Below the pieces are notes generated by a model, which saw only the letters and a program-made list of their open reading frames with translations, ran no database searches and was not told the origin of the DNA. A program made the position numbers and the translations under genes. This document shows, piece by piece, positions 18,998 to 41,840 of a DNA stretch of 64,000 nt; the stretch's first letter is position 1, and the number at the start of each line of letters is the position of its first letter. The DNA is from Arenicellales bacterium (GTDB taxonomy: Bacteria; Pseudomonadota; Gammaproteobacteria; Arenicellales; JAJDZL01), in assembly GCA_965203865.1 (NCBI GenBank), contig OZ241916.1:202353-266352 (forward strand). The letters run 5' to 3'.

Positions 18998-19044
18998 AGT
19001 TGATTCAATTTAACCAAGCCAAATGAGTGAGCCAAAAATTTGTG

Positions 19045-19986: not shown

Positions 19987-20885
19987 AACATCATGATTAC
20001 ATGAAAAAATTTTTGGACGACCATGTCAATCTAAATCAATCCAGAATTGATACTCTGAATGGACGAGTTAAATCTATAACGGATTATCTGAGATCAAATT
20101 TTGAAGGTTATCGAAAAGTCAGTACGCAAGGTTCGTACGCCCACGGAACCATCATTAAACCTGTGCAGGAAAATGATGAATTTGATGCAGACATTTTGGT
20201 TTTTATCGAAGATAGCCGATTTAACCCAGATTATTTTTATGAAGATTACGTCAAATTGATATGCGATGTACTTAGGAAGAATGGCGATTACAAAAACCTA
20301 GTAAAACTGAAGACTAGATGTTGCACAATTGATTATGCAAAAGATAGTCACATTGATGTTGTTCCTTGTATTAAGTACAGGGAGCAAATGTTTATCTGCA
20401 ATAGAGATGAAAAAAAATACGAAAAAACTGACGGCGATGGATATAAAGAATGGATAAATGAATGCAATCGAACTGTAGGGGGCGGTAATTTCAAAAAGGC
20501 TACAAGATTGTTTAAATTTTTGCGTGACCACAAGGACAATTTCACAGTCAAGTCAATCTTGTTTACGACCATACTTGGAGAGCAAATATATCGAAATTAT
20601 CTTGGAAGTAGTGGATTCGGAGATTTGACAGAAACATTATTTACTCTGTCAAACAGGGTAAGTACTTGGTTATGGCAAAATCCTGTTGTACCAATTATAA
20701 GAAATCCAGTGTTGCAAGAAGAGGAATTCAGCAGAGACTGGACACAAGAGGAGTACAGAAACTTTTGTGAAAAGTTTAGTAGTTACAATAATATGATTAC
20801 CCATGCATTCCATGAGCCATATCATAATGATAGTGTAAGGAAATGGCAAAATATATTTGGAAATGAATTCGGTAAATTGCGCTAG
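19983..20885 (+). CDS. SMODS / CD-NTase-like nucleotidyltransferase
   Basis: Pol-beta NTase signature QGSYAHGT ... EFDADILV ... SHIDVVP and a basic helix RLFKFLRDHK as in CD-NTases. Start (GTG 19983 or ATG 20001) overlaps or abuts the patatin stop. Confidence 0.7.
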   Translation: MKHHDYMKKFLDDHVNLNQSRIDTLNGRVKSITDYLRSNFEGYRKVSTQGSYAHGTIIKPVQENDEFDADILVFIEDSRFNPDYFYEDYVKLICDVLRKNGDYKNLVKLKTRCCTIDYAKDSHIDVVPCIKYREQMFICNRDEKKYEKTDGDGYKEWINECNRTVGGGNFKKATRLFKFLRDHKDNFTVKSILFTTILGEQIYRNYLGSSGFGDLTETLFTLSNRVSTWLWQNPVVPIIRNPVLQEEEFSRDWTQEEYRNFCEKFSSYNNMITHAFHEPYHNDSVRKWQNIFGNEFGKLR

Positions 20886-21989: not shown

Positions 21990-23198
21990 TCATTCTGTTG
22001 GCGATGCTGGATAAATTGTCAAGCACAATTCATCACCTTTCAATTCATACTTAGGTTCCACTCCACTCAATTCCTTGCTTTCTCGAATAATTATTCCCAC
22101 ACCTTCACCCCTTCTGTCCATAAAACCGCTTCTAGCTATCTGATTACTTACCGTGTTGTTCAACTTTACCTCTGACAATAAGCGTGTCAATAGTTCATTG
22201 CGAGCACATTGGTTATAAATCAATCCATCAATTGTCAAAGAATCGACTAATCCTCCAGGAGAATAGATTTCCAGCCTGTCTGAGAACATGAACAAGCGAA
22301 TTTTGGCTCCATGCTTGGAATAGTCCCGATGCACAACCGCATTAACGATCGCTTCAAAAATTGCTCGCATACTGTATTGAGGCAAGTCCTCCCTCAACGT
22401 TGATTTTTTCGCAGAAACGAGGCTGTTGGTCATAACGAACGAAAGAGCATCCAAAACCTGCTTGTCCAATGGGCCATAAATGTCTTTGGCATCAACTTGA
22501 TAGTTTGCATCTTTGTAGATGCCGCCGTAATGAACAGCACAAATATAGCCGTTGGGTATGAACTCCTCTGGTGATTCGCAACACATTAACACTCCTGCTA
22601 CTGTTGCTCTTATATCTCCCCTTTCTTTAACTAGCAGATGTCGTTTCATCAGCACCGATTCGATAGGTTCTTGTTCCGAAAAGTATATAAACCGCCTGTA
22701 TAGTTGTTCGTTTAAGTTGTAAAATTGCGTAAGTGGTACTGCTTGGCGGTCAAATGGAATATTACGCCCTTGGGAGCGTTCTTGCGAAAGGCGGATTAAC
22801 AGGTCGGGGGGAAATTCCATCCTGCTACTTCCCTGGCGCATGAGGTATCCGCTAGGACTTTTGTGAATGAATAAACTACGAGGCACTTCAACTTTCAGTA
22901 TCAACTTATCATCTATCCTAATAATTTCGGTTATGGTTCTAACCGATGGACTAATGCTGTCTTTGCCGACCTCGACGGCAATATTCTCCACTTTATCGGC
23001 TTTACCCGAAGGAATGCCAACAATGTTTCTGTTATCAGAAACACCGACAACAATTACTCCGCCAAATGAGTTTGCAAACGCCGCTATTTCATCTGCAAAA
23101 CTATTTCGGTTCCAATTTGTTAATTCCTGCTTGAATCCGATTGTAGAATCCTCTCCGAGAGAAATCTTATCAAGCAGTTCGGATACGCTGTTAATCAT
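21990..23198 (-). CDS. AlbA_2 (Schlafen-like) + HATPase_c_4 putative DNA-binding ATP-binding protein
   Basis: N-terminal GEDSTIGFKQEL ... FANSFGGVIVVGVSD (AlbA_2-type divergent AAA). The C-terminal half resembles the HATPase_c_4 transcription-regulator module (AIVNAVVHRDY). Confidence 0.65.
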   Translation of the reverse strand: MINSVSELLDKISLGEDSTIGFKQELTNWNRNSFADEIAAFANSFGGVIVVGVSDNRNIVGIPSGKADKVENIAVEVGKDSISPSVRTITEIIRIDDKLILKVEVPRSLFIHKSPSGYLMRQGSSRMEFPPDLLIRLSQERSQGRNIPFDRQAVPLTQFYNLNEQLYRRFIYFSEQEPIESVLMKRHLLVKERGDIRATVAGVLMCCESPEEFIPNGYICAVHYGGIYKDANYQVDAKDIYGPLDKQVLDALSFVMTNSLVSAKKSTLREDLPQYSMRAIFEAIVNAVVHRDYSKHGAKIRLFMFSDRLEIYSPGGLVDSLTIDGLIYNQCARNELLTRLLSEVKLNNTVSNQIARSGFMDRRGEGVGIIIRESKELSGVEPKYELKGDELCLTIYPASPTE

Positions 23199-23936
23199 TG
23201 TTTAGACCTGTCAGGATGAATTCGCTTGTACCTTTGTTCAAATGCCTATTGCTCGCCTTATTTTTTTTTGCAGATGATTTATTAGTTGTTAGTTCAGTAT
23301 TTTCCAATTGACCAGTTGAAGTATCGTCATTTGCACGAGTGCGCCAAGTGCGGTCGTCAAGTTTCGCCGAAGGCCGGTACAGAGGCATGAAAAAGTTTGA
23401 TATAAGTTCCTTGGCAGCGAAGCCTACCGCGATACCGCCAAACGCCAAAATGCCGGTAATGCTGAATCCGAGGGTCTGCATTGCAACTAAAGTGGCAGTT
23501 ATCACAATGACAAGGCGTAGCACTTTCGCGAGGGCATCAAGATTCGCCTAGTTGTAGGGTTCGCCGCGGGCTGTCTTTTTTGGATATAAGTTTTCTCCAG
23601 ATTTTTAACGAGCCGGATAAAGAACCAGCCCATCGCTGCAATAATCGCTACAGACCGGATTGGCGGGACTGCGACAAAAATCTCTGCGTTGGTTTCGAAA
23701 TGAATAATGTCAATGGCAAGCGAAACTCCCGCAATCCAGATAATCAAGCCTGCAGGTTTTTGAAGTGCCGTAACAAGCGCATCGTCCCACATGGATTTTG
23801 TTTTTTGCGATTTTCCTGCAATATACTTGAACATGTATCTTCGAATCTCACTTGCAACAGCAGTTAGTGCCAGAGTGATAAATATCTGGAATACCCAAGG
23901 GTTTACTGTGAAAACTTCAATTATTCGATCAATCAT
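23191..23936 (-). pseudogene. MscS-family mechanosensitive channel remnant (frameshifted, 3'-truncated)
   Basis: Two overlapping ORFs carry the N-terminal TM module and the pore helix region (TLGFSITGILAFGGIAVGFAAKELISNFF). The beta/cytoplasmic domain is missing and the reading frame decays where the AlbA_2 gene begins. Confidence 0.6.
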
Positions 23937-24450
23937 CTTTATCCTTCTTACTGAACTTTGAACTAATAGCCATTAAGATGGCATCTTTATCCAAATTTTT
24001 ACTGAGCTGGATAAAGAACCAGACCAGTGCTGCAACGATCGCTATAACCTCAATTATCAGCACTGCGGCTGAAATCTCTTCGTTGGTTTTGAAGTGGATG
24101 AACTGAAGGACGAAAGAGATTCCCACAATCCAGATAATCAAACCCGCAGGTTTTTGAAGTGCGGTAACAAGGGCGGCTTTCCACAGGGATTCTTTCCTTT
24201 GCGATTTTTCTTCAAGATACTTGAACAAGTGTCTCCATGCCTTACTTGCAAAAACAGTCAGTGCCAGAATGGCAAGTACTGGAAATACTTTGATGAATAT
24301 TTTGATAAATGCCCCTAATGATTCGGCAAATCCTTTGATAAATAACACTAATGCTGGGACAAATCCTTTGATAAATATAAATAATCCCTGTAACATCAAA
24401 CCAATTCCTGAAAAAAATTCCCCAAAAAGTTCCATTACTTCATTCATCAT
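23929..24450 (-). CDS. membrane protein, paralog of MscS N-terminal module (copy 2)
   Basis: Shares SLW.AALVTALQKPAGLIIWIVG ... WFFI core with 23502-23936 and 24440-24979. Ends in KKDKDD. Confidence 0.45.
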   Translation of the reverse strand: MMNEVMELFGEFFSGIGLMLQGLFIFIKGFVPALVLFIKGFAESLGAFIKIFIKVFPVLAILALTVFASKAWRHLFKYLEEKSQRKESLWKAALVTALQKPAGLIIWIVGISFVLQFIHFKTNEEISAAVLIIEVIAIVAALVWFFIQLSKNLDKDAILMAISSKFSKKDKDD

Positions 24451-24979
24451 CTTTATCCTTCTTATTGAACTTCGAACTAATAGCTGTTGAGATGGCTTTG
24501 AACCTCGAACTAATAGCCGTCAAGATGGCTTTTTTATTCAAATTTTTATTGAACCGGATAAAGAACCAAGCCAGTGCTGCAATGATCGCTATAGACCGGA
24601 TTGCCGCAACTTCGGCCAAAAACCATGCGTTGGTTTTGGAGTGAATGAATTCAAGGGCGAACGAGACCCCCACAATCCAGATAATCAAACCTGCTGGTTT
24701 TTGAAGTGAGGTAACAAAGGCGTTCCAGAGGGATTCTTTATTTTGCGATTCTTGTTCAAGAAATTCGAACAAGAATCTTCGGATATTACTTACAACAGCA
24801 GTTAGCGCCAGAATGATTAATACTAGGATTATCAAGATTAATACCATGATAAAATCTTGGAGTTCCTCGATACATACCTGTAATTCCTGTAATTTCGAAA
24901 TAACTCCCATAAGAAAATCAATAACTCCCATAAGGAAATCAATAACCCCTCTAAGAAAATCATTTATTCCATCAATCAT
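24440..24979 (-). CDS. membrane protein, paralog of MscS N-terminal module (copy 1) with internal short tandem repeats
   Basis: Same conserved core. The N-terminus contains GVIDFLM repeats (24-nt DNA repeats at about 24895-24970). The C-terminus contains a duplicated AISS.F segment and ends in KKDKDDE. Confidence 0.45.
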   Translation of the reverse strand: MIDGINDFLRGVIDFLMGVIDFLMGVISKLQELQVCIEELQDFIMVLILIILVLIILALTAVVSNIRRFLFEFLEQESQNKESLWNAFVTSLQKPAGLIIWIVGVSFALEFIHSKTNAWFLAEVAAIRSIAIIAALAWFFIRFNKNLNKKAILTAISSRFKAISTAISSKFNKKDKDDE

Positions 24980-24997
24980 TTTTACTTTCTTATTGAA

Positions 24998-25780
24998 CTA
25001 TGCGTACAGTGAGTCAAGGAGTACATCCGGTTTTTCCGACATGATTGTATGGCCGACTCGAGGAATGACTACAACTTCAGAAAATTTTAGCGAATCTACC
25101 GAGTCTCGGGTTGCGCACACTGGGGTTAGCATATCTCTTTCACCGAGAATCAGCATAGTTTGGTATTGAATTTTCCGTGCAGACTTGATTCCGTTTCTGT
25201 AGTCGTTGCTGGCATTGCGATCATTGTACAAAACCCCAGGTGAACCTCTTTCAAACAGGCGTGTCAATCCGCCGATCATCCACATTCCCGGTGTATCGCA
25301 ACCACCAAAATGGGCAGATGGGCTATGCCCCCAGGCAGTAAGCATGTCAATAGCTTCATGATCATTCGATTTGGCAAGATTCAGCAGTTCATCCGTAACA
25401 GTCACGGGAGTTGCAGTTCCGACGAGTACAAGTTTTTCTGCTCGTTCAGGATACTTTGCGGCGGCTTCCAGTACGACTAAAGAACCCATGCTATGTCCTA
25501 TAAAAACAGCGCTGGACAGATTCAATTCGTCCAGAAGCTCCTTTAGCCAATCCGCATAAGCGCCAATCGTAGGCAGCGGTTCTCCCGTGGAACGACCATG
25601 TCCAGGCAGGTCGACAGCAACAACATTCAATCCGTGCCGGGCAAAATATCGCGCCTGCAAAGTCCAGACAGTGTGGTCCAGCGATGCACCGTGTACAAAC
25701 AGCACAGAAGGAAGATCAGGATTGATTTTCTTTCCGGCAGTAAATGCGTACGCGGTCTCGCCTTGAACTCCAATTCTCAT
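24998..25780 (-). CDS. alpha/beta-fold hydrolase
   Basis: VLFVHGASLDH, DLPGHGRS and the GHSMG nucleophile elbow. ATG at 25780 chosen. Confidence 0.8.
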   Translation of the reverse strand: MRIGVQGETAYAFTAGKKINPDLPSVLFVHGASLDHTVWTLQARYFARHGLNVVAVDLPGHGRSTGEPLPTIGAYADWLKELLDELNLSSAVFIGHSMGSLVVLEAAAKYPERAEKLVLVGTATPVTVTDELLNLAKSNDHEAIDMLTAWGHSPSAHFGGCDTPGMWMIGGLTRLFERGSPGVLYNDRNASNDYRNGIKSARKIQYQTMLILGERDMLTPVCATRDSVDSLKFSEVVVIPRVGHTIMSEKPDVLLDSLYA

Positions 25781-25796
25781 ACTACAAGATTCTTGC

Positions 25797-25997
25797 TCAC
25801 TTTTTGATGCGCTGGGAAGCTCGCAAACCGGTTTCCAAGTCTTCCACCAAGTTATCTGGATCTTCCAGCCCGACCGAGAGCCGGACCAAACCTTCGGAAA
25901 TTCCGGCAGATTCGAGGGCTTCGGCATCAAGCCGGTGATGGGTAGTGGAAGCAGGGCGAATTACCAGCGATTTAGCACCCCCCGTTGGCATGCTCAA
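25797..25997 (-). pseudogene. C-terminal fragment of a Cys/Met-metabolism PLP enzyme (O-acetylhomoserine sulfhydrylase/cystathionine synthase-like)
   Basis: GGAKSLVIRPASTTH ... GISEGLVRLSVGLEDPDNLVEDL covers only the last roughly 60 aa of this family. The upstream part is replaced by the repeat at 25988. Confidence 0.7.
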
Positions 25998-26055
25998 TCA
26001 GATCATTACGTGGTATTATAAGACAATCCTTATTTTAATTTGGATGCATGTTTTA
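25988..26055 (+). repeat. IS1595-associated end-like repeat, copy A (solo)
   Basis: GCATGCTCAATCAGATCATTACGTGGTATTATAAGACAATCCTTA ... matches 41724-41790 and the reverse complement of 45672-45730. Confidence 0.7.
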
Positions 26056-26079
26056 TTAATTAAAAATGGAGAAATTATT

Positions 26080-26184
26080 ATGGCTAAATCTAGTAGTGGC
26101 TCTAAATCAGGTCCGTCTAACGCACCTAGTAGGACGGGCAATCCTTCTGGCGGAGGTCGTGGAAATAACCCCCCAAAAAGATAA
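26080..26184 (+). CDS. micro-ORF, 34-aa Gly/Ser/Pro/Lys-rich peptide (copy 1)
   Basis: GGAG SD 8 nt upstream and a strong terminator downstream. The paralog at 26502 shares NAP ... PSG ... RGNNPPK. Confidence 0.5.
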   Translation: MAKSSSGSKSGPSNAPSRTGNPSGGGRGNNPPKR

Positions 26185-26210
26185 GGTTAAGTTGCACATT
26201 TCCTATGAAT

Positions 26211-26245
26211 AGAGTAGCCCGAAGTTTTTTCGGGCTACTCTTTTT
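26211..26245 (+). terminator. Rho-independent terminator after micro-ORF 1
   Basis: agagtagcccgaa / ttcgggctactct stem followed by TTTTT. Confidence 0.8.
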
Positions 26246-26501
26246 AGCAGTAGATGTTTTTCAACATCCCAAAAAAATGTCTATCTTCTAATTAGTTTGT
26301 CATGGCATGCAATGGAACAGCATCAACGAATATCTTAAGTAGATACTCGCAAAAAAACTACGACTTAAAAACTGAACGATTCGATAAGTATTTTTGCAGA
26401 TGAAATTGAAAATTAATTCTTGTAGAGTAAAAAAAACTTTCTTGCGTACTCGTATAATCTATTTCTTATGTGTTTTTTTACATTTTTATGGGAGGATGTA
26501 T

Positions 26502-26612
26502 ATGCCTACATCAAAAACTGGTTCCAAACCAAAACCGCCGCCTAACGCACCTGCTAAGAAGCAGTACAGGCCTTCTGGTAAATATCGTGGAAATAATCCG
26601 CCAAAAAAATAA
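26502..26612 (+). CDS. micro-ORF, 36-aa Lys/Pro-rich peptide (copy 2)
   Basis: GGAGG SD 6 nt upstream and a terminator-like hairpin downstream. C-terminal RGNNPPKK is shared with copy 1. Confidence 0.5.
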   Translation: MPTSKTGSKPKPPPNAPAKKQYRPSGKYRGNNPPKK

Positions 26613-26638
26613 GGTTAAGCCGTACATCTACTATGAAA

Positions 26639-26672
26639 GGGCGGCCCGAAATTTTTCGGACCGCCTTTTTGA
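26639..26672 (+). terminator. Rho-independent terminator after micro-ORF 2
   Basis: ggcggcccgaaa / tttcggaccgcc stem (one mismatch) followed by a T-run. Confidence 0.65.
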
Positions 26673-27034
26673 TAGTAAATACTTGCCAACTTCCCGAAAA
26701 ATGCCTATCTTCTAATTTAGTTCGTTATGGCCTACAGCGGAACGACATCAACGGACATCTTAAGTGGATGCCAGTGGAAAACTACAACTTAAAATTCTTG
26801 CAGGTGCAATTGAAAATTAATTCTCGTACAGTCAAAAATTCATGCAGAATTAAATAGTGTTGCAAAAAAGCAACACAAATGTATTGACCTATTGCAATAT
26901 TGAATCATATTTATAGCAATAGAAAAGAAGTTCTATTATCATTCCCCCAAGAGTAATCAAGGAACATCATCAGTTCCAAGATTACTTTCAATTGTTAACT
27001 TAAATTAATTAATTAATTTTAGAGGATTTTTCAA

Positions 27035-28030
27035 ATGAAGAAAAAATTACTTGTTATTGCTCTCGCAAGCCTATTGAGTGCGCCCTCAATTGTCTTTGCG
27101 CAGGCAACCTGGTACGGCTCGTTCCGCGCCGGCGTGGAAAGTGCGTCCGGCGAGACCACCCTGAACTCGAAGGGGAGTCGCTGGGGCGTGAAGGGCTCGA
27201 ACGAGATTTCCGACGGCCTGACGGCGGTGTACCGCTATGAAGAGGCGCTGGACCTGAGGACCGCCACGCTGGGCGCCGGCAACCGGCTGTCCTATGTGGG
27301 CCTGTCCGGCGGGTTCGGAACATTGACCATGGGCCGCGTCTGGGGCGCCGAGTACAACTCGACCGGCGCAATTACAGACAACTCCTACTTCTACGGCGAC
27401 AGCCTCGGCAGCTACAGAATCGGGCCTGCGCTTTCGTACGCAGTGTCGGCCGGCCCTGTGAGCATGCAGCTTGACGCCGTCATGGCGGGCGGAAATACCC
27501 CGATGGACACTGACAACGATGCGGATACTCCCGATGTCAACACTCGAGACACCAAGACGGTTGACCAGGTTCTGTTCGGTCTTTCGGCGGACTTCGGCAG
27601 CGGCAAGGTGGCGGTTTCGTACCGTGCGAACAGCACCGTTCCTGCGGTGAAGGACACCAACATCACGGCTGCCGGGCAGTTCACCTTCGGCGCCACCCGG
27701 GTCTATCTGGGCTATTCGCAGTTCAAAGAGCCTGACGACAACGATAGTGGTACAGAAGGCGTGCAGACTCGAAAGACGACTGGCACATTTGCTGGAATCG
27801 GCGGTTCTTTCGGCGACACTGGCCTGTCGTATCTGATGCAGGTGACGCAGAGGAAGCAGGAGACTGGCGGGACTGCTGCGGCGGCCAAGCCGACTCCTAT
27901 TCTGCTGAGCATTGCGAAGTCGCTTGGAGGTTCATCCACGATTATTCTGGAAGGCGTGACCAACAACAAGACCTTCGCTGGTGCGAAGCAAAAAGCAACA
28001 GTAGGGCTTATACTGAAAGTCGATTTCTAG
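27035..28030 (+). CDS. Gram-negative general porin (copy 1, intact signal peptide)
   Basis: Signal peptide MKKKLLVIALASLLSAPSIVFA, N-terminal ATWYGSFRAG, alternating beta-strand pattern and terminal VDF (C-terminal Phe). Confidence 0.85.
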   Translation: MKKKLLVIALASLLSAPSIVFAQATWYGSFRAGVESASGETTLNSKGSRWGVKGSNEISDGLTAVYRYEEALDLRTATLGAGNRLSYVGLSGGFGTLTMGRVWGAEYNSTGAITDNSYFYGDSLGSYRIGPALSYAVSAGPVSMQLDAVMAGGNTPMDTDNDADTPDVNTRDTKTVDQVLFGLSADFGSGKVAVSYRANSTVPAVKDTNITAAGQFTFGATRVYLGYSQFKEPDDNDSGTEGVQTRKTTGTFAGIGGSFGDTGLSYLMQVTQRKQETGGTAAAAKPTPILLSIAKSLGGSSTIILEGVTNNKTFAGAKQKATVGLILKVDF

Positions 28031-28268
28031 TTGGAAATCTTAGCAACAAGAAAAGCGGGGTGCATGCACCCCGCTTTTTTTTGTCGAAAATCATGGTAAA
28101 TGATGATATTCGCCTTGCATGGATTGCAAGAGGGCAATGTCGGTGAAAAATCGCCGCGAAAAATTAATAAACAAAGCCAATTGCTTGCAAGTCTGGCCCA
28201 AGCTGGCGATTCAAGGCAAATGCCAAGTATCTTGTTTTGAGTCAAGCAAGATTGAATGGTCCCGTCCG
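27073..28268. repeat. left arm of roughly 1.2 kb inverted repeat (porin body + terminator + about 230 bp downstream)
   Basis: Reverse-complement match to 28588-29829, with two divergent internal blocks. Confidence 0.85.
28045..28073 (+). terminator. Rho-independent terminator after porin 1
   Basis: agcggggtgcatgcaccccgct palindromic stem plus a T8 run. A mirrored copy lies at about 28750-28778 for porin 2. Confidence 0.85.
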
Positions 28269-28587
28269 GTACAGAAAATATTTAGCTGCTTCACCGCACT
28301 TTGCAGCGTGTACCGCCTTGAAAGAAGAGTCATATTCAGTTTTATATTGATGCAGGACTGTTTTCATCAACGGTCGTTAGTAGAGTCGAGTTATGCGCTA
28401 GCCCCAGTGATTTACGAAGCCGAAGTAGTAGAGAGACCAGCATTCTTCATTAACATGTTCGCGCAGTCAGATGCTAGAAATGGCAACCAGACTCCAAGGA
28501 AGGAGTACTAGGTACTGCTAGAATTTTCTATTGCTTCAATCAATACCGGCAATAGATGAAAACCAAACTCTGCCCTCTGCGGCAAGA

Positions 28588-29829
28588 TGGGACAATTCAA
28601 TGTTGCTTGACTTGAACAGCCAGTTTCGGACCAGACTTGCAAGCAGCTTGCCTGCCTGTTAAATTTTTTCGCGGCGATGGTTTACCGGCATTGTTGTCTT
28701 GCAGTCCATGCCAGGCGAATATCATCATTTGCCATGATTTTCGGCAAAAAAAAGCGGGGTGCATGCACCCCGCTTTTCTTGTTGCTAAGATTTCCAACTA
28801 GAAATCGACTTTCAGTATAAGCCCTACTGTTGCTTTTTGTTTCGCACCAGCGAAGGTCTTGTTGTTGGTCACGCCTTCCAGAATAATCGTGGATGAACCT
28901 CCAAGCGACTTCGCAATGCTCAGCAGAATAGGAGTCGGCTTGGCTGTCCCACCAAACTCCTGCTTCCTCTGCACCACCTGCATCAGATACGACAAGCCAG
29001 TGTCGCCAAAGGAACCGCCAATTCCAGCGAATGTGCTGGTCGTCTTTTGAACCTGCGTGCCGTCTGCGTCATCATCTTGGTCGCCTCCGCTAGGCGTTTT
29101 CTTCTGCGAATAGCCGAGATAGACTCGAGTGGCGCCGAAGGTGAACTCACCCGCAGCCGTGATGTTGGTGTCCTTAAACGCAGGAGTAGTGCTGTCCGAA
29201 TCGTACGAAACCGCCACCTTGCCACTGCCGAAGCCCGCCGAAAGACCAAACAGAATGCGGTCAATCGACTTGGTGTTTACGGTATTATCGTCGTCGGGAT
29301 AATTGATACATCTGGTTTCAGCTGTGACACTAGCTCCGGTACCACAATTATCTGGGCCTTCGCCGTTACCTTGACCATGAACGTGGTCTCCTCTATCTCT
29401 CGCTCCATTGCCCGCCATGATGGCATCAAGCTGCATGCTCACAGGGCCAGCGGACACTGCATACGAAAGTGCAGGACCGACTCTGTAGCTGCCGTGGCTG
29501 TTGCCGTAGAAGTAGGAGCCGTCTGTAATCGCACCGGTCGAGTTGTACTCGGCGCCCCAGACGCGGCCCATGGTCAGCGTTCCGAACCCGCCGGACAGGC
29601 CCACATAGGACAGCCGGTTGCCGGCAGACAGCGTGGCGGTCCGCAGGTCCAACGCCTCTTCATAGCGGTACACCGCCGTCAGGCCGTCGGAAATCTCGTT
29701 CGAGCCCTTCACGCCCCAGCGACTCCCCTTCGAGTTCAGGGTGGTCTCGCCGGACGCACTTTCCACACCGGCGCGGAACGAGCCGTACCAGGTTGCCTGC
29801 GCAAAGACAATTGAGGGCGCACTCAATTG
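28588..29829. repeat. right arm of roughly 1.2 kb inverted repeat
   Basis: Partner of 27073-28268. Confidence 0.85.
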
Positions 29830-29886
29830 GGGAAATTGGCTTCTGTAGAATGCACTCCCAAATTGTTTAAATGGCACAGGATTCAT
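28798..29886 (-). CDS. Gram-negative porin (copy 2, divergent loops, atypical N-terminus; possibly silent cassette)
   Basis: From LSAPSIVFAQATWYGS onward it is near-identical to copy 1 except in two loop blocks. Upstream of the repeat boundary the N-terminus (MNPVPFKQFGSAFYRSQFPQ) lacks a normal signal peptide. The ORF could also start at 29955. Confidence 0.6.
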   Translation of the reverse strand: MNPVPFKQFGSAFYRSQFPQLSAPSIVFAQATWYGSFRAGVESASGETTLNSKGSRWGVKGSNEISDGLTAVYRYEEALDLRTATLSAGNRLSYVGLSGGFGTLTMGRVWGAEYNSTGAITDGSYFYGNSHGSYRVGPALSYAVSAGPVSMQLDAIMAGNGARDRGDHVHGQGNGEGPDNCGTGASVTAETRCINYPDDDNTVNTKSIDRILFGLSAGFGSGKVAVSYDSDSTTPAFKDTNITAAGEFTFGATRVYLGYSQKKTPSGGDQDDDADGTQVQKTTSTFAGIGGSFGDTGLSYLMQVVQRKQEFGGTAKPTPILLSIAKSLGGSSTIILEGVTNNKTFAGAKQKATVGLILKVDF

Positions 29887-30062
29887 GAGTTTCTTGAAAA
29901 TTATTTGACTTAATAGGGAATTGTTTATAATAATGAGAATTATTATCATTTTCATATAAGATTTTAACTGTTTCGCAAGCAGAGTAAAACAGAATTAGTC
30001 AGAAAAAGGTGCCTATAGTTTGAGTCTTGTTGTCAATATACTATTGATGAGGACTATACATA

Positions 30063-30959
30063 ATGAAAAAGCAATTTCTGGCTTTTGCTGTAGTTTTGCT
30101 ATTCAGCACGCCTTCAATAACTTTTGCCGAGGTAGTTTGGTACGGATCTTTTGCTGGCGGCATTAAATCTGAAGATGGAGAAACTACATTCAGTGACTAC
30201 AGTTCCGTCTGGGGTGTTGAAGGGGCCACTGAAATATCACCTGGTTTGTCGGCCATTTTTCAATTCGAAGCATTCCTGGATTTGGCGAATGCCACTATCA
30301 ATCCTGAAGATGACGAAGGAGTCCCCGGTGCGGGATTGGCCTATGTAGGTCTTTCCGGAGGATTCGGAACTCTTGCAATGGGTCGCTTGATTGCGGCACC
30401 CGATCTGGTTACCGGAATCATTGATAATTCGCTGGAATGGGGCGAGGGGCCTGACGCAGCCGAATTGGATTCGGTGCTATCCTATGCAGTAGATGCGGGA
30501 CCAGCCAGTATTCAGTTGGATTTGGTAATGGATTCAGGTGAGGAAACCTTGGACAGAACACTTTTTGGTTCCAGTTTTGAATTTGGTAGCGGCGGCGTTG
30601 CTTTATTCTACGACAAAAACAAATCAGAATTTACTGAAACAGGATTAGCCGCTGAGCAGGCTGTTGGTCCGGTTCGATTGTATCTGGGTGGAATTCAGAA
30701 CAAACCAGAAGAAGGCACTAAAACGACGAACTACTTCTTTGGCTTTGATGGCTCTATTGGCGATTCAGGATTGACATATCTTGTACAGGCCACCCGAAAG
30801 AAAGACGTAACCGGCAAACCAACACCTATAGTTTTAAATTTGACAAAAGAACTCGGCGGCAGTAGTGCAATCACTTTCGAGGCAAAAACTAATGACAAGG
30901 ATGATGAGGGCGCAAAAATAAAGACAGCGGCTGGAATTGCCTTGATAGTAGACTTCTAA
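30063..30959 (+). CDS. Gram-negative porin (third, divergent paralog, host-like composition)
   Basis: Signal peptide MKKQFLAFAVVLLFSTPSITFA, then EVVWYGSFAGG ... LIVDF. Confidence 0.8.
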   Translation: MKKQFLAFAVVLLFSTPSITFAEVVWYGSFAGGIKSEDGETTFSDYSSVWGVEGATEISPGLSAIFQFEAFLDLANATINPEDDEGVPGAGLAYVGLSGGFGTLAMGRLIAAPDLVTGIIDNSLEWGEGPDAAELDSVLSYAVDAGPASIQLDLVMDSGEETLDRTLFGSSFEFGSGGVALFYDKNKSEFTETGLAAEQAVGPVRLYLGGIQNKPEEGTKTTNYFFGFDGSIGDSGLTYLVQATRKKDVTGKPTPIVLNLTKELGGSSAITFEAKTNDKDDEGAKIKTAAGIALIVDF

Positions 30960-30980
30960 TACGTTGATCGAAAATTAAAA

Positions 30981-31007
30981 AAGGGACGGAGTGCCGTCCC
31001 TTTTTTA
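30981..31007 (+). terminator. Rho-independent terminator after porin 3
   Basis: aagggacgg agtg ccgtccctt stem followed by a T-run. Confidence 0.8.
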
Positions 31008-31034
31008 TTTATGAGCAATTTATTCTCATTGCTT

Positions 31035-31586
31035 TCAATGATTTCTGGTTTGATATTTTCCTTTTTCATCTTCACGAAAAGTCACAAGGCTGTGCAGAGG
31101 AATGGGTGCCAATTTTTCTCGCCCGCCTAAATCAATCAATTCGATAATTGCAACGCACTCGTGTACTTGACCCCCAAGATTGGCCACCAATTCAACAGAT
31201 GCACTCAAAGTTCCTCCGGTCGCGACCACATCGTCGACAACAAGTATTTTTTGTTCACTTGCAATTGCATCCACATGAATTTCCAATCCGCTTTTTCCGT
31301 ATTCAAGAGCGTATTGGGTTGAGACAGTTTTACCCGGTAGTTTGCCTTGTTTGCGTATGGGAATCAGTGGAAGATTCAGAAGATACGCCAGCACTGAACC
31401 AAAAACAAATCCTCTGGCCTCGACCACTGCAACTCCTTCTACATTAGTACCCTCATAGCGTTGATGCAGCTGGTTGATGCAATACCTTGCTGCTTGGGGA
31501 TTTTGTAGCAATGTTGTAATGTCGCGAAATCGAACGCCTTCAACAGGATAGTTCAATACAGTGCGAATCGTGGACTTTACATCCAT
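31035..31586 (-). CDS. apt: adenine phosphoribosyltransferase
   Basis: PYPVEGVRFRDIT-like N-terminus and the PRPP-binding loop ILVVDDVVATGGT. Confidence 0.9.
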   Translation of the reverse strand: MDVKSTIRTVLNYPVEGVRFRDITTLLQNPQAARYCINQLHQRYEGTNVEGVAVVEARGFVFGSVLAYLLNLPLIPIRKQGKLPGKTVSTQYALEYGKSGLEIHVDAIASEQKILVVDDVVATGGTLSASVELVANLGGQVHECVAIIELIDLGGREKLAPIPLHSLVTFREDEKGKYQTRNH

Positions 31587-31673
31587 TAGGAAGCACAAAA
31601 CTACATTTGATTAAAGTTCAGTTCTTTTCAGTAGAAACTCAGCAATTGCTTTATGTTTTGAGCTTAACCAGTA

Positions 31674-33020
31674 CTATGTTCCCAAGACATCAATAGTAGC
31701 CGCGCGAAGAATTGCGCACAACCGGTCTATTTCATCATTTGTAATAACAATTGGCGGTGCAATGCAAAAAACATCTCCGCGAACTCGGCTAAATAATCCT
31801 CTTTCAATAGCAGCACTCAGAACTTTGTCTCCGATTTTGTCTTCGGCGGGGAATGGTTCCTTGGTTGACCGATCCTTTACATACTCAACACCTGCAATCA
31901 AACCCAGTCCTCGAATATCTCCAACATGAGGATGGTCCCCAAGTGCAGTATTCAGATTTTCCATTAGTCTGTTGCCTTTATCTGCAGCTTGGGCAGGAAA
32001 GTCTTCGCGTTGCACCAAGTCCAGCATGGCCAGCGCAACCGCACTTCCAATCGGATGTGCACTGTATGTATAGGCATGCATGAAAGGTTCTGATTTTTCA
32101 TCGAAAACCGACGCAATTTTGTCATTCACTCCGGTTCCGCCGAATGGAAAGTATCCGGAAGTGATTGCTTTGGCGAAATTGATCATATCCGGTTCAACCC
32201 CCCAATGATTCAACGCAAACATTTCACCGGTTCGGCCAAAACCCGTAATCACCTCGTCTGCCACAAAAAGCACTTCATACTTGTCGCAAATCTCACGAAT
32301 CCGGGGGAAATAGTCGTCTTGAGGTGCGATAACACCACCCGACCCCTGTACTGGCTCTGCGATAAACATTGCCACAGTCTCCGGTCCTTCTGCCAATATT
32401 GCTTTTTCAAGTTCGTTTGCCGCCGCAACACCTTGGGAAACGCTCGTATCAGTTTGCTCGTACCGATAGGGGTAAGGGGAAGGAATAAACGCAAAGCCTG
32501 GAATACGCGGTTCAAACAAGGGCCAATATGCGGGAATTCCCGTAGCACACATTGCAGCAAACGTCACTCCGTGATACCCGAACATTCGGGAAATGACTTT
32601 CGTCTTATCCGGCTTGCCGCATAATTTCCAATAGTATCTTGATATTTTTAACGAGGTATCCGTTGCTTCACCGCCGCCAGAAGTCAGGAAAAAACGATTG
32701 ATTGACGGGTACATCAACTCTGCGAGTTGAGTTCCCAGTTGTATCGCCTTGTCATTTGAGCTTCCTATGTATCCTGAAGCATACGGTAGTCTTGCATACT
32801 GCCCTGTTGCAGCATCCTTGAGCTCCTGTGCACTGTGTCCAGCGGTATTGTTCCACAATCCCGCAAGTCCGTCGATGTACTCTTTTCCATCAGAGTCAAT
32901 GAGAGTTGAACCCCGCCCTTCAACCCAAATTCTTGCGTTTTTGTGGGCAGAGTTTATATGCAGCGGATGAATCAAGTGTCCGCTGTCTTGTGCTAGCAAT
33001 GCTGAACTGGTACTGGCCAT
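31674..33020 (-). CDS. class III (omega-type) pyridoxal-phosphate aminotransferase
   Basis: 448 aa. LFVADEVITGFGRTG and the FAKAITSGY Lys motif are typical of aminotransferase class III. Confidence 0.85.
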   Translation of the reverse strand: MASTSSALLAQDSGHLIHPLHINSAHKNARIWVEGRGSTLIDSDGKEYIDGLAGLWNNTAGHSAQELKDAATGQYARLPYASGYIGSSNDKAIQLGTQLAELMYPSINRFFLTSGGGEATDTSLKISRYYWKLCGKPDKTKVISRMFGYHGVTFAAMCATGIPAYWPLFEPRIPGFAFIPSPYPYRYEQTDTSVSQGVAAANELEKAILAEGPETVAMFIAEPVQGSGGVIAPQDDYFPRIREICDKYEVLFVADEVITGFGRTGEMFALNHWGVEPDMINFAKAITSGYFPFGGTGVNDKIASVFDEKSEPFMHAYTYSAHPIGSAVALAMLDLVQREDFPAQAADKGNRLMENLNTALGDHPHVGDIRGLGLIAGVEYVKDRSTKEPFPAEDKIGDKVLSAAIERGLFSRVRGDVFCIAPPIVITNDEIDRLCAILRAATIDVLGT

Positions 33021-33094
33021 AATGAACTATCTCGTATTAAATTGTTGAATTTGAATGTTTATGTGAACTTTTCTGCAATTTAACAAATCGCAGA

Positions 33095-33784
33095 CTATCT
33101 TGTTATTTCGACTGTTGCAACAGGGCCTTGCCATCTATGCTTATCCGGGTCAAGCGCTGAGCCCTCTCCGCCCATAATTCCTGGATGCCGCTCAATACTC
33201 CCTTCTATTGAAACACCTGTTATGCCTGATGCGGATAGATTCGCCTGACCGCTTGGATCTGCTGGTATGCCGGGAGTATTTGGAACACCTCCGCCAGTAA
33301 TTTGCTCGTCATTGGCTTCTGTGCCTGCATCTATTGCATATAGTTCTTGAATCCCATCGCGGATTAATATGTTATCCAAAGCGACAAAACCATCGTTTGT
33401 TGGCAAAATCATGGCAATCATCGACATTCTTGTATTCGAACTGTCAAGTTCAACTGATACAGATTCACCTGGACCGAGCAATCCATTCGCCGGATTTTCA
33501 ATGACCTGTGCATTTTCGAATGACATTGCGATTGGAGCGATATTGCCTCCCTCGGCAACTGCCTGCAATTGCTCCGATGCTACCTTTCCGAATGTGAACA
33601 TACCAGTCTCAAGCATACCGTGCCCTGCAATCAAAATTGGAGTCAGATAAGCATTTGGAGTTACATTGGTTATGCTAACTTTAACGCTTCGCATCATCAT
33701 ATCTTCTTTGCTTCCGTACATGGCGGTGCATGCACTAAGCATAGCGCTAGCCAGCAAAAAGAAAGCAATGATATATTTTTTCAT
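33095..33784 (-). CDS. spondin_N domain lipoprotein
   Basis: Lipobox MKKYIIAFFLLASAMLSAC. MIAMILPTNDGFVAL and AIDAGTEANDE resemble bacterial spondin N-terminal domain proteins. Confidence 0.55.
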   Translation of the reverse strand: MKKYIIAFFLLASAMLSACTAMYGSKEDMMMRSVKVSITNVTPNAYLTPILIAGHGMLETGMFTFGKVASEQLQAVAEGGNIAPIAMSFENAQVIENPANGLLGPGESVSVELDSSNTRMSMIAMILPTNDGFVALDNILIRDGIQELYAIDAGTEANDEQITGGGVPNTPGIPADPSGQANLSASGITGVSIEGSIERHPGIMGGEGSALDPDKHRWQGPVATVEITR

Positions 33785-33991
33785 AAACAACTCCCGGAGA
33801 ATGAAAAAAATTAAAGATTGGGATCCTACAATCAAGGCAATATCATAACATGCAAGGCAAAATTAATTAGATTAAACAACAACTTCTAGCCAATTTGGAG
33901 AAGATAAGCCAAGTTGTTCTCAAAATGATCTTCAATTTAGAAGATATCAAGGGGAATAACCTGCAGAGCGTAAATCCTTATTGGTACCGTT

Positions 33992-34816
33992 TTATGGTAA
34001 TAGTTTAGGAACCCCGCATCCCTTCCAATTCAATTTCTCACATTCACGGGCCGCTTGCTTGACTATTTTTAGTTGACTCTTGGTCAGTTTACTTTCAATT
34101 TTCTGAATTAATTCAAATGATGCCAATATCCCCCCGGAATGCGCTGCAATTGATGACCAAAGATATGCTCGGCGAAGTAATTCAAATGAATCATAATTTG
34201 TGAAATAAAGCAATCCCAGATTGTATTGTGCCTCAGCAAGTCCCTGCTTTGCCGCAAGCCTGTACCATTTCACCGCTTTTTGCTGGCTTCGGGCAACTCC
34301 TACTCCTTTGTCGTACATCAATCCGAGATTGTATTGTGCCTCAGCAAGTCCCTGATCCGCCGCAAGTTTGTACCATCTCGCCGCTTCTAGCTTGTCCCGG
34401 ATAATTCCTTCTCCTTTGTCGTACTTTAATCCCAGATTGTATTGTGCCTCAGCAAGTCCCTGCGCCGCTGCACGCTTGAACCATTTCACCGCTTCTCGCC
34501 GGTTCCGGTCAACTCCTACTCCTCTGCCGTACATCACTCCCAGATGGAATTGTGCCTCAGCAATTCCCTGCACCGCTGCCCGCCTGAACCACCTAGCTGC
34601 TTCTCGCTTGTCCCGGACAACTCCTTCTCCGTCGTAGTATATCAATCCGAGATGGTATTGTGCCACAGCATCTCCTTGCTCAGCACTTTCAAATAATTGA
34701 GTCAATACTTCGCTGTATTCTATATTTTCATGGGAATTGGCTACTCTAGACCCAATACCGTAATGCAAAATAATTAAGCTCGCAAAAATAACGATAACCA
34801 ATCTATTCATAGTCAA
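33992..34816 (-). CDS. Sel1-repeat (TPR-like) protein, secreted
   Basis: Repeated AEAQYNLGLMYDKGVGV ... A.KWY..AA.QG units, five or more in total, with an N-terminal hydrophobic signal. Confidence 0.85.
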   Translation of the reverse strand: MTMNRLVIVIFASLIILHYGIGSRVANSHENIEYSEVLTQLFESAEQGDAVAQYHLGLIYYDGEGVVRDKREAARWFRRAAVQGIAEAQFHLGVMYGRGVGVDRNRREAVKWFKRAAAQGLAEAQYNLGLKYDKGEGIIRDKLEAARWYKLAADQGLAEAQYNLGLMYDKGVGVARSQQKAVKWYRLAAKQGLAEAQYNLGLLYFTNYDSFELLRRAYLWSSIAAHSGGILASFELIQKIESKLTKSQLKIVKQAARECEKLNWKGCGVPKLLP

Positions 34817-34881
34817 GCAACTCCAAGATTAACTGCGTTGTATTTCAGGCCCATTACCCAATTTCCTTTGTGCCTATACAC

Positions 34882-35088
34882 TTACATCAGCCTAACTGTA
34901 ATAGGAGCATGATTCACAGTGGTTTTCAAAAGCCTATCGGGCAATTGGCTATTCCAGTGCCAGCGGTTGAACCAGTATAGAAACTCGTTGACATGCTCCT
35001 GATTATACATTTTTGGGGTCTTCAGGGTTTTGTGTGGCTGAATTCGATTAGTGCATAGTATATAGTGAAAAGGAGAAGAATGGTACAC
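34882..35088 (-). mobile_element. IS1595-family transposase C-terminal remnant (divergent)
   Basis: VNEFLYWFNRWHWNSQLPDRLLKTTVNHAPI parallels YVDEFVLRFNRRF ... LLGRLLQAAVDHVPI at 45871-46119. Confidence 0.55.
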
Positions 35089-36189
35089 AACAAGGGAGGC
35101 AGTGGATATGGTGAATGCGGATTCGCCGGTGGAGCGGATTCAGCGGTACCGGTTCACTGACAAGAAATTGTGGGGTGACGCTCCTGATGCATTGCAAAAA
35201 TCCGTAGCACTGCCAAGGCATTGGTTCGAAACTCGTATCCCGGCACCAAGCGCAGAAATTGCAAAGCAACTGGATTTGAACAAAACACAAGTTCATACTT
35301 GGTTAAAATGCAGCAAACTTGAAGGTAGAGTAATCAGGAAGACTAGTCCTGTGCGTTATTCTGTTCCTGAAGATGGCAAGAAGCAGAAGTCTCTTCAGGG
35401 TCTTTGATATGCACACTCAACTTCGGTGCTCTGCATTCAAGAATGCTGATTTACTTGATTCGTCTGGCTGACCATCCTCTGAATTTAGCCTAGTTGGAAA
35501 TTAACATCGAAACCGATCTTAACATTCAACTGGCGGCATTTTTGATTGGGTGAATTGGATGGTAGATTACAGACGATGGAAGCGTAAGCGGTGGTTCTCC
35601 AACTTGCCGGATCAAATATGGACCTCAACCGTAATTCACTACCGCAAATTCCGCCACTTTTTGAAATGATTCGTCAACTTTAACGAGTTCTCTGTCATAG
35701 AATACGACCCATTTACCCCGATGCTCTGTCTCGAGTACTCCAAGCATCCGTCATATGTTTCAATATTCTCCAATAATGTGGCAATCATTGCCCAGCCTCC
35801 TAATACTACTTTCACTCTATCACATTTGTGGAATGTTGACAAAGTTATATACGGGTTCAAACAATATGCGACTTAGTCAACTGTTGTCAGTCGCCTCAAC
35901 ACTATGGAGAAAATCGTACGGGAACGAGGTGGTGGTAGATGTCTCCGACTTCAGCGGGGGAAAGGGTCAGCCGGAAACACTATTCTGAAACGCGTTCCTC
36001 CGAAAGTGGTTCCGGGGGAACTTCGGACTCATCTGGAGCATTTTGCTCCAAAATCAAGGGCACCAAGTAAAGTAGGATTCCTGCGGAAGTCAGTAGTGCA
36101 GTAGCAGCTGCCCAAATGGTTTGCCGCGATCTACTTGATGGGAGCTGACAAGGGCGGGATTTTGGCTCAACGGCTTTCCAAGATGATAG

Positions 36190-36320
36190 GCATGCCTTGG
36201 TCAACCGCCGATCGAATGTTGAGGAATATATCGCCGATTCTAGGAACCTCAGTTGCCGGACCGATTGCTACAGGCCGCCGTTGCCCATGTGCCGATTCAG
36301 GCTTTCCTTACTATAAGATC
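36190..36320 (+). mobile_element. IS1595-family 3'-end remnant
   Basis: The DNA aligns with 45965-46090 (cgccgattc ... cctcagttgc ... catgtgccgattc.ggctt.cctta). Confidence 0.55.
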
Positions 36321-36391
36321 AAAAGAATTAAATTTGCAACTGTGAACAAGTTCCTTAGTGCAGTTTCTTTCGAATATTTACAATTTTCTTG

Positions 36392-36595
36392 CTACATTGT
36401 ATTTGCATTCCCGGTTGCAATTACTTGTGCTCTGACAGCCTCAGAGTTCGCATTGGTTATGGAATTATTAATGTCTGACACCGCAGATTTTGCAGTGCAA
36501 TCCTCTGTCAATCCCATTGAATCCGGGCAGTTATGCGTGCAGGCACTAATAAAAAAGCACATGGATATTGATAAAACACCAAATAAAGATTTCAC
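36392..36595 (-). CDS. small putative lipoprotein
   Basis: MKSLFGVLSISMCFFISAC lipobox-like signal. No homolog recognised. Confidence 0.3.
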   Translation of the reverse strand: MKSLFGVLSISMCFFISACTHNCPDSMGLTEDCTAKSAVSDINNSITNANSEAVRAQVIATGNANTM

Positions 36596-36767
36596 TTCCT
36601 TCTCCTATACTTGTAGAGTTACAATTTGCACTACTTCCAATAATATCATGTTGCAACATCTTTCAACAAAACAATTTTCACAATATGCCGGAAATCTCTG
36701 TCCCTTGTTGCAAGTAAATCCTGAACTGATACCAAAGAATCTTGTTCAATTGGTCTGTGATGAACTT

Positions 36768-38008: not shown

Positions 38009-38057
38009 ATAAACTTTAATCCTGTTAAATCAACCAACTCATAATACACAGTATTCC

Positions 38058-38861: not shown

Positions 38862-38871
38862 AATTCTCATC

Positions 38872-39081: not shown

Positions 39082-39091
39082 AGAGACTATT

Positions 39092-41195: not shown

Positions 41196-41321
41196 AAGAA
41201 TTGAGTTCACATAAAAACACTCGAACAGAGGATAAAGTTAAATCATCTTATTCTGTATGACCATGAGCGAGATATTTGAAGAACATACAGCGTTTAAGTT
41301 TTCAAACTAAAAAAGAGAGAA

Positions 41322-41790: not shown

Positions 41791-41840
41791 AACATTATTC
41801 CGTTATCCCATTGATTCGGGTCATGACACAAAGACAGTCT

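Follow-up and report, generated by a model that had tools for sequence, protein, structure and literature searches.

The 64-kb window analysed here, meaning the whole stretch of Arenicellales bacterium contig OZ241916.1 under study (64,000 nucleotides, coordinates 1-based), carries two porin genes, copy 1 and copy 2, that face each other as an inverted repeat (Table 1). A first-pass annotation of this DNA had described a porin inverted repeat with arms of about 1.2 kb around a spacer of about 320 bp. The repeat search of the window confirmed this layout, with arms of ~1.2 kb at approximately 27070-28266 and 28586-29830 and a unique spacer of 319 nt. The similarity was recovered as a 421-nt piece at the 5' end of the genes (27070-27490 / 29410-29830; 95%), two internal pieces (27532-27733 / 29092-29293 and 27736-27876 / 28943-29083; 82% each) and a 321-nt piece toward the 3' end (27843-28163 / 28665-28985; 90%), and two short inverted pieces (28159-28199 / 28628-28668 and 28240-28266 / 28586-28612) lengthened the arms. 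A 32-mer at the junction occurred exactly twice in the window, compared to zero occurrences expected in shuffles. Through pairwise alignment, the onset of homology was placed at ATTGAGTGCGCCC, corresponding to copy 1 codon 14 (LSAPSIVFA), at 27074 and 29826, and the repeat boundary does fall inside the signal peptide, as had been proposed.

Other elements of the first description were also borne out. The two divergent internal blocks had been quoted correctly for both copies, and the palindromic terminators in the arms were recovered as identical, bidirectional hairpins. It was noted that the long loop of copy 2 contains two Cys codons (29344-29346 and 29308-29310), while copy 1 has none, and that this Cys pair is also kept in the related proteins P0005, P0009, P0011, and P0012. 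The promoter-like hexamers upstream of copy 1 are suggestive only, because the region is AT-rich. No family match was found in the profile search for the spacer open reading frame (ORF; 28119-28511), Rfam gave nothing above threshold over 24000-32000, and the plasmid and phage collections contained no match to the locus.

Table 1. Coordinates of the porin locus and its boundary dyads within the window
Feature	Position	Strand	Description
Promoter-like hexamer pairs 5' of copy 1	26884..26939	+	TTGACC-16-CATATT, TTTATA-18-TATTAT; weak, consensus only
Expression-site-specific leader	27022..27070	+	Shine-Dalgarno GAGGA 27022-27026, ATG 27035, first 12 signal-peptide codons MKKKLLVIALAS
Copy 1, expressed porin	27035..28030	+	331 aa; Porin_4/Porin_1; signal peptide cleaved after VFA
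Copy 1 conserved 5' block	27070..27490	+	95% identical to 29410-29830; G+C at third codon positions (GC3) 0.8-0.9
Dyad of expressed copy	27071..27092	+	22 bp, CTATTGAG-TGCGCC-CTCAATTG; one arm mismatch
Copy 1 variable block 1	27491..27571	+	predicted extracellular loop L4
Copy 1 variable block 2	27722..27784	+	predicted extracellular loop L6
3' homology past copy 1 stop codon	28031..28266	+	includes terminator hairpin 28051-28078
Unique spacer between arms	28267..28585	.	flipped relative to expression flank in related scaffold L001
3' homology past copy 2 stop codon	28586..28797	-	includes terminator hairpin 28750-28777
Copy 2, silent porin cassette	28798..29826	-	intact ORF LSAPSIVFA to ...KVDF; without own start context or signal core
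Copy 2 variable block 2 (L6)	29035..29103	-	
Copy 2 variable block 1	29254..29409	-	long L4 loop with two Cys residues
Copy 2 conserved 5' block	29410..29830	-	
Dyad of silent copies, window lineage	29808..29829 in copy 2	-	CAATTGAG-TGCGCC-CTCAATTG; perfect 8-6-8
Silent site A flank	29830..30062	.	unrelated to expression leader; doubles as promoter region of divergent 30063 porin
Third porin paralog	30063..30959	+	50% identical, own signal peptide, divergent from copy 2

The two copies differ most clearly in what precedes the junction. In copy 1 the sequence is MKKKLLVIALASL, and a GAGGA Shine-Dalgarno sequence precedes the ATG by 8 nt, whereas copy 2 reads ...KKLMNPVPFKQFGSAFYRSQFPQ and has no Shine-Dalgarno sequence before any candidate start. 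The signal peptide of copy 1 begins MKKK, continues with the hydrophobic core LLVIALASLL, and ends in an AxA-like cleavage site (between VFA and QA). The best 10-residue Kyte-Doolittle window scored 3.05 in copy 1 compared to 1.22 in copy 2, where no hydrophobic core was found within 25 residues of the cleavage site. A Sec signal peptide was accordingly recognized in copy 1 and not in copy 2 or the other signal-less copies, and the claim of a canonical signal peptide in one copy only held at the level of Shine-Dalgarno sequence, ATG, and hydropathy. The minus-strand ORF of copy 2 extends over 28798-29955 and is open past the junction, the AT-rich site A flank shows consensus promoter matches on both strands, and the ratio of nonsynonymous to synonymous substitution (dN/dS) of copy 2 was 0.3. 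By these sequence features, export of the copy 2 product would hardly be possible, and copy 2 is a cassette that is silent in structure yet intact.

Both proteins were assigned to classical porin families (copy 1: Porin_4 74.3 bits against a cut-off of 27, Porin_1 49.5 bits; copy 2: 76.5 and 45.1 bits). Modelled with AlphaFold on 56 aligned sequences (mean predicted local distance difference test (pLDDT) score of 85.8), copy 1 formed a 16-strand beta-barrel in which L3 folds inward and the last residue is Phe, and both copies end ...KVDF. The Foldseek matches of the model included Vibrio cholerae OmpT/OmpU, Omp32, PorB, and OmpF (E 1e-12 to 1e-15; template-modelling (TM) score ~0.7). When strands were numbered starting from L3 (residues 104-127), the loop that bears the helix, variable block 1 corresponds in the model to a 28-residue connection at 150-177 (L4) and variable block 2 to 233-245 (L6). 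The suggestion that the divergent blocks are surface loops was thereby upheld, insofar as structural modelling of copy 1 places both in predicted L4 and L6. Among 13 close cassettes, mean variability was 0.34 in L4 and 0.40 in L6 compared to 0.11 in the strands, and all insertions and deletions were confined to predicted external loops (following residues 37, 152-167, 201, 234-242, 280, and 312). Variability was located in L1, L4, L5, L6, L7, and L8, while the periplasmic turns were almost invariant, several of them fully so.

Porin copies in the source genome and its relatives

A protein search placed four porin bodies with a single leader on the 3,147,672-bp source contig: P0121 (the copy 1 protein), P0006 (the copy 2 protein), P0001, and P0004. 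P0001 lacks the leader and begins MLQTRQ-LSAPS..., and P0004 begins at the junction; both are known only as proteins, and their placement at flanks B and C was drawn from their N-terminal residues. The layout in the source is one expression site with at least three silent cassettes, arranged in two convergent pairs ~35-45 kb apart. The first-pass annotation had asked whether the pair represents an expression locus plus a silent cassette. The silent state and the anatomy stood up to this examination, but the system is not a two-gene one and is better described as multi-cassette, with at least three silent copies.

The closest genome in the species collection was the Arenicellales metagenome-assembled genome OZ241380 (76% identity), which carries one expression copy and four silent copies, all within 16 kb. 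On PANK22 scaffold_17, the expression copy P0003 faces the silent P0002, and 25 kb away the silent P0005 faces a silent 321-aa copy. In a third relative, ctg394252, a single expression copy is accompanied by at least two silent copies. The arrangement of one expression locus with several promoter-less, 5'-truncated homologues was therefore encountered in the source and in three related genomes, and every silent copy in the relatives starts at the same junction as in the window. Among the 120 best matches, full-length proteins (MKK...) were found beside signal-less forms beginning L-S/T-x-P-S. Many of the more distant porins likewise come in both forms, the signal-less ones with LS[AV]PS at their start, and one 1.14-Mb contig contained seven signal-less porin forms by itself. 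At the other silent sites, stop codons were noted 3-17 codons 5' of the junction.

All 15 of the 15 cassettes read, 11 of them silent, were open from the junction to ...VDF, with dN/dS values of 0.16-0.48. Because their reading frames are intact and their dN/dS is low, the silent cassettes are regarded as maintained and not decaying, and a pseudogene reading of the silent copies was ruled out on the same grounds. An assembly artefact was likewise ruled out, as the exact proteins occur on the 3.15-Mb contig and the layout recurs in independent assemblies. It was also noted that a convergent pair of silent cassettes in OZ241380 (L004 10001-12026), 67 nt apart, separates hpaB from a histidine-kinase gene, and that this gene and hpaB are direct neighbours in the window (48577-51668). 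The chromosomal sites of silent pairs therefore vary from species to species.

Sequence exchange and inversions among the copies

Comparison of the locus across relatives, which the first-pass annotation had recommended, revealed different bodies behind the same leader and the same silent-site flank. One leader was found with three bodies, namely copy 1, P0003, and P0012, whose L4 contains Cys and whose L5 has an insertion, and the bodies behind that leader differ between the related scaffolds L001 (PANK22) and L002. The site A flank carries a Cys-loop body in the window, L003, and L007, the short-loop body P0007 in L008, and a 435-aa body in L091; this flank is 97-100% identical among L003, L007, and L008, while the bodies fall to 11-87% in places. 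Within the source genome, residues 14-237 of copy 1 are identical to those of the silent P0001 except for one, and the two differ through L6 and at one residue in L7; outside L6, their identity is 97%. Such a near-duplication could not have been made by reciprocal inversion and suggests instead that gene conversion acted duplicatively and left a mosaic end. The facing pair P0003/P0002 of PANK22 has common middle and 3' parts, and the 5' third of P0003 resembles P0004. Across the copies, conserved blocks flank the variable surface segments and the relations among bodies are mosaic, too much so for the exact series of events that separates PANK22 from the window genome to be traced. The DNA upstream of the expression site was found to carry differing insertions between genomes.

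The base composition of the cassettes was also distinctive. The porin bodies have a G+C content of 0.57-0.59 and a GC3 of 0.65-0.71 in a window with a G+C content of 0.45. GC3 reaches 0.8-0.9 in the 5' block (27125-27480 and 29420-29780), compared to 0.40 in the third porin and 0.36-0.53 in neighbouring genes, and the same contrast was present in the five OZ241380 cassettes. When the window species was compared with OZ241380, the proportion of synonymous differences (pS) was 0.34 in the porin 5' block and 0.72-0.82, which is saturated, in apt, the aminotransferase gene, panB, and hpaB. The low pS and high GC3 were read as signs of frequent recombination; as to their cause, they would fit selection for keeping homology, GC-biased gene conversion, or interspecies transfer of cassettes. 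The recombining 5' block is in this respect a candidate signature of GC-biased gene conversion and a natural case for studying how cassette homology is kept up.

We further compared the orientation of the locus between genomes. L001 (PANK22) matches the window in plus sense over 26795-28219, which comprises the expression flank and copy 1, and in minus sense over 59989-64000 at a distance of only 6 kb from the porin. L003, from the same scaffold and in the same sense, matches 28698-43097 in minus sense. The segment from approximately 28698 to past 64000 is thus inverted in PANK22 relative to the expression flank (at least 35 kb), and the 319-nt spacer is flipped as well. At the far end of this inversion is the porin pair of silent site B, beside genes for a methyltransferase, CoaE, MnmA, and ClpS/ClpA. 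A second case was encountered between OZ241380 and ctg394252, which are 94-96% identical and differ by a ~16-kb inversion between two porin pairs; the silent copy that faces the expression copy has a HepT/nucleotidyltransferase flank in one of them and a histidine-kinase flank in the other. From the sequence comparison, recombination between porin copies does take place and has rearranged these chromosomes repeatedly, and the locus offers an example of repeated surface genes driving large chromosomal inversions.

Two fold-back contigs from low-coverage long-read data of sample ERZ25070167 were noted separately: L007 (1-12705; 2.88x) and L091 (1-11383; 1.24x). In both, 2-5 kb of the site A flank (spondin, aminotransferase, apt, and porin genes) appears in inverted orientation on both sides of a porin pair. 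The centres are not palindromic, and L091 has an IS21 element between its two porins. One body of L007 belongs to the copy 2 type, and the second corresponds to the body found at site C in PANK22 (dS 0.034). These contigs could represent merged orientation variants, a real fold-back duplication, or a chimera at the inverted repeat, and they were not counted as evidence.

The boundary dyad and explanations of the locus

The 5' boundary of homology is marked by a 22-bp dyad, which was present at the exact boundary in every copy of four lineages. In the OZ241380 lineage, the dyad reads CAACTGAC-TGCGCC-GTCAGTTG, and in a third lineage (L009) it takes the form CTGAG...CTCAG. The silent-type dyad of the window and that of OZ241380 are separated by exactly four substitutions, which form two compensating pairs; one of these combines a Ser>Thr codon change with a synonymous Pro change (CCC>CCG). 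Over 23 distinct junctions, 90% of cells were paired, compared to 20-47% when the partner was slid by 1-3 columns, and three of the eight pairs change on both sides, with 0/500 shuffles reaching the observed score under a control that leaves the relatedness between sequences in place. The hairpin itself is weak (-5.5 kcal/mol). The third porin shows no dyad symmetry, and because of this and its ordinary GC3 (0.40) it was placed outside the cassette set. The metagenome scan returned only distant full-length relatives (38-56%), among which dyad symmetry was variable. Since these relatives keep only 3-7 of the 8 arm pairs, inherited codon usage for L-S-x-P-S accounts for part of the symmetry.

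Most long ORFs of the window, all but four at 56757-60760, were scanned with NCBIfam or Pfam profiles; two TnpB genes were recovered but no serine or tyrosine recombinase, and no recombinase genes were found beside the porin copies in OZ241380, PANK22, or ctg394252. A Din-family site (TTC---AAAC- -A -GTTT---GAA, 26 bp) was considered and rejected, as CAATTGAGTGC / GCCCTCAATTG has neither AAACC/GGTTT arms nor an AA/GA core. The dyad is taken to be a real conserved feature. It is conceivable, although we consider it rather doubtful, that it acts as a dedicated signal, either the site of an unlinked recombinase or nuclease or an exchange-starting hairpin or cruciform, that defines the 5' end of every porin cassette throughout an order of marine Gammaproteobacteria. 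If this were true, free-living bacteria would possess a programmed, phage-driven surface variation with an enzyme and site outside the described invertase families. In the more distant lineage of L009 (1387-4845 and 11832-13247), three adjacent tyrosine-recombinase genes are located beside one of the signal-less porins, and a second signal-less copy is followed by a group II intron reverse transcriptase; the recombinase trio looks like a separate mobile element.

In our view, the locus is probably the expression site in a porin variation system that has multiple cassettes and is run by homologous recombination. Under this proposal, copy 1 alone would supply the promoter, ribosome-binding site, and first 12-13 signal-peptide codons, while copy 2 and at least two other full-length bodies start inside the signal-peptide codons and would be neither produced nor exported on their own. 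The near-identical 5' block of ~420 nt and the conserved 3' block with its terminator would bracket the loop segments (L4 and L6, and in relatives L1, L5, and L8 also), and homologous recombination between the conserved blocks would bring loop segments or whole bodies to the expression site. The main route would be non-reciprocal gene conversion. As the copies are in inverted orientation, reciprocal crossing-over would invert the intervening DNA, amounting to 2.75 kb for copy 1 and copy 2 and to tens of kb for other pairs. The anatomy of the locus, the silent state, the intactness and purifying selection of the cassettes, the mapping of loops, the mosaicism between sites and genomes, and the inversions ending in porin pairs are shown by the sequences and form the basis of this proposal. 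We infer in addition that exchange would proceed at a useful rate within a lineage, presumably through a RecA-type engine. The outcome would be a population with varied porin surfaces, on which phages or other loop-binding agents are the likely selective force.

Several observations weigh against this interpretation. Both inversions break at the 3' side of the porin pairs and not in the 5' blocks, and the expressed body is consequently left unaltered and colinear with its flank. The evidence for exchange is all comparative, between genomes that are 86-96% identical. The promoter-like minus-strand matches at 29900-29988 leave room for transcription of copy 2, the boundary dyad is unexplained by plain homologous recombination, and the high GC3 could result in part from the codon bias of a highly expressed gene. 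The 3'-side break points fit a general homologous recombination that acts wherever homology permits. The first-pass annotation had proposed that an inversion through the conserved 5' blocks would switch the expressed body. The inverted repeats do bound alternative 3' gene parts, with the constant 5' part (27035-27070) outside and the invertible interval at 27074-29826, and such an inversion is mechanically possible; however, the inversions seen end at the 3' side, and the near-duplication of P0001 is not explained by inversion. The 5'-block inversion is one of several allowed exchanges and probably secondary to gene conversion.

Three other explanations were weighed against variation by homologous recombination. 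In one, site-specific or structure-initiated recombination at the dyad, by an enzyme encoded elsewhere in the genome, swaps whole bodies in the manner of shufflons or Mycoplasma vsa, and homologous recombination merely adds mosaicism. We consider this unlikely, even though it would account for a dyad placed precisely at the homology boundary of all copies in four lineages, for the compensating pairs and the pairing at the 23 junctions that no shuffle matched in score, for the perfect dyads of the silent copies, and for the absence of a dyad from the non-participating 30063 paralog. The relatedness left in the covariation control, the weak hairpin, and the partial symmetry of distant members, with its share of inherited codon usage, reduce the force of these features. 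Moreover, neither the scanned ORFs of the window nor the surroundings of the copies in three relatives contained a recombinase gene, the dyad has no likeness to the Din-family consensus, the observed inversions between genomes break away from it, and mosaic bodies require homologous exchange regardless.

It is very unlikely that these are ordinary duplicated porins in which the signal-less copies are inert remnants that play no part in variation, the likeness among the genes stemming from recent duplication and an occasional ectopic recombination event. All 11 silent copies read were intact and under purifying selection, the differences cluster in surface loops, and the junction and the plan of one leader with many bodies persist across lineages whose housekeeping genes are synonymously saturated. 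These results stand against the comparative, and not direct, nature of the support for switching, the lack of a nearby recombinase, and the fact that inverted repeats recombine in any genome, all of which the remnant explanation can draw upon. The remaining explanation, that copy 2 is independently expressed through a non-standard N-terminus (for example from M24, MNPVPF...) and that the pair are co-expressed paralogs, appears barely credible. Its ORF is open for 43 codons 5' of the junction in three related genomes, and the minus-strand promoter-like matches noted above are compatible with transcription, but no candidate start has a Shine-Dalgarno sequence, the hydrophobic core is lacking within 25 residues of the cleavage site, and the other silent sites have stop codons 3-17 codons before the junction.

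Neighbouring features and comparison with known systems

The surrounding window was found to contain several defense and mobile features. A cyclic-oligonucleotide-based antiphage signalling system (CBASS) pair at 19027-20885, composed of a patatin-like cyclic GMP-AMP (cGAMP)-activated phospholipase and a cGAS/DncV-like nucleotidyltransferase (CD-NTase), is located between OpuAC and AsnC genes. These two genes are almost adjacent in the related contig L002, so that the pair looks like an inserted defense module. A Schlafen/AlbA_2 and HATPase_c_4 protein gene (21990-23198) is followed by three ORFs without a family match (23502-24979). As most of 21990-24979 and a hydrolase gene (24998-25930) have no counterpart in L002, this region looks like an island 5' of the porin expression site. 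In L009, an unrelated contig, a Schlafen/AlbA_2 gene also directly precedes a silent porin copy. Directly 5' of the porin promoter region, a tandem duplication (26113-26840) with a unit of ~425 bp was noted, each unit possessing a small ORF (25945-26184 and 26394-26612) for a basic Gly/Pro-rich peptide ending RGNNPPK(R/K). Two 401-aa TnpB genes (IS200/IS605-type RNA-guided nuclease) occur on opposite strands at 36798-38003 and 52659-53864, and the ORF upstream of the first (36135-36785) had no family match. A Type ISP restriction-modification gene is divided between two ORFs (43197-45215 and 41841-43175) and appears as a single 1124-aa ORF in a related scaffold; the split could reflect a frameshift, a pseudogene, or a phase-variable gene.

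The locus was then compared with known systems of surface variation. The closest in kind is Brucella omp2a/omp2b, in which two porin genes of opposite orientation are separated by ~830 bp, expression is confined to omp2b, and diversity in surface loops L3, L5, and L8 arises through segmental conversion between omp2b and its silent partner (PMC7050475). Both systems combine opposed porin genes, one of them expressed, with loop variation that here probably also comes from gene conversion. The Brucella system has two copies, however, compared to at least four in two pairs here and up to five in relatives, and large chromosomal inversions between pairs are a feature of the present system. Brucella is an intracellular pathogen, while the host here is an environmental marine gammaproteobacterium. 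Moreover, omp2a is a complete gene, unlike the silent copies of this locus, which are cut inside the signal-peptide codons at one fixed, dyad-marked junction. In Dichelobacter nodosus, omp1A-D was reportedly described by Moses et al. in 1995 as a multiple DNA-inversion system. It is the precedent for a set of several variant major outer-membrane-protein genes whose switching has been proposed to rely on inversion, at Din-like sites (PMC4196234, PMC3241671) modelled as Din-family (Hin/Gin-like) 26-bp nix sites such as TTTCCCAGAAGC AA CCTTAAGTAAAA (PMC3241671). In contrast, the dyad described here is without similarity to the Din consensus and no invertase gene is located nearby. The word 'porin' is absent from the text of a survey of gene-altering programmed inversions (PMC9881135).

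The dyad-marked cassettes of this locus can also be set beside several systems that vary other surface proteins. Neisseria pilE/pilS, Anaplasma msp2, Treponema tprK, and Borrelia vlsE each possess one expression site and promoter-less, 5'-truncated donors with mosaic duplicative transfer, and they resemble this locus in having conserved blocks around variable surface-exposed segments. Their targets are pilins, lipoproteins, and other outer-membrane protein families in host-restricted pathogens, whereas a classical 16-strand general porin is the target here, and the donors are complete bodies in convergent inverted pairs and not short cassettes. In Mycoplasma vsa, vsp, and vpma, a single promoter and 5' end is joined to alternative silent bodies at a recombination site in the 5' end of the gene. 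The join is likewise placed in the signal-peptide region here, but the Mycoplasma systems involve lipoproteins with a tyrosine recombinase in the locus, and the present one a porin with no recombinase found. Campylobacter fetus sap undergoes RecA-dependent inversion between opposed homologues with conserved 5' regions, and the phage Mu G segment and plasmid shufflons combine a constant 5' part with alternative 3' parts. As in these, inversion between opposed homologues would change the expressed body; unlike here, the sap promoter is on the invertible segment and all homologues are complete, and Mu and the shufflons use adjacent invertases with short specific sites.

The system differs from those compared in its complete porin bodies with a fixed cut in the signal peptide and in its three or more donors in convergent pairs, and further in the conserved dyad at the cut, the lack of a linked recombinase, and the environmental host. 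To our knowledge, systems that pair an expression site with silent cassettes have been described almost exclusively in host-restricted pathogens and are interpreted there as a means of immune evasion. In the present case, this logic applies to a classical general porin of an environmental lineage from the sea, the Arenicellales and relatives, and is conserved across genomes despite synonymous saturation of their housekeeping genes. If the proposed switching is true, it would provide free-living bacteria with built-in variation of a phage receptor or nutrient channel.

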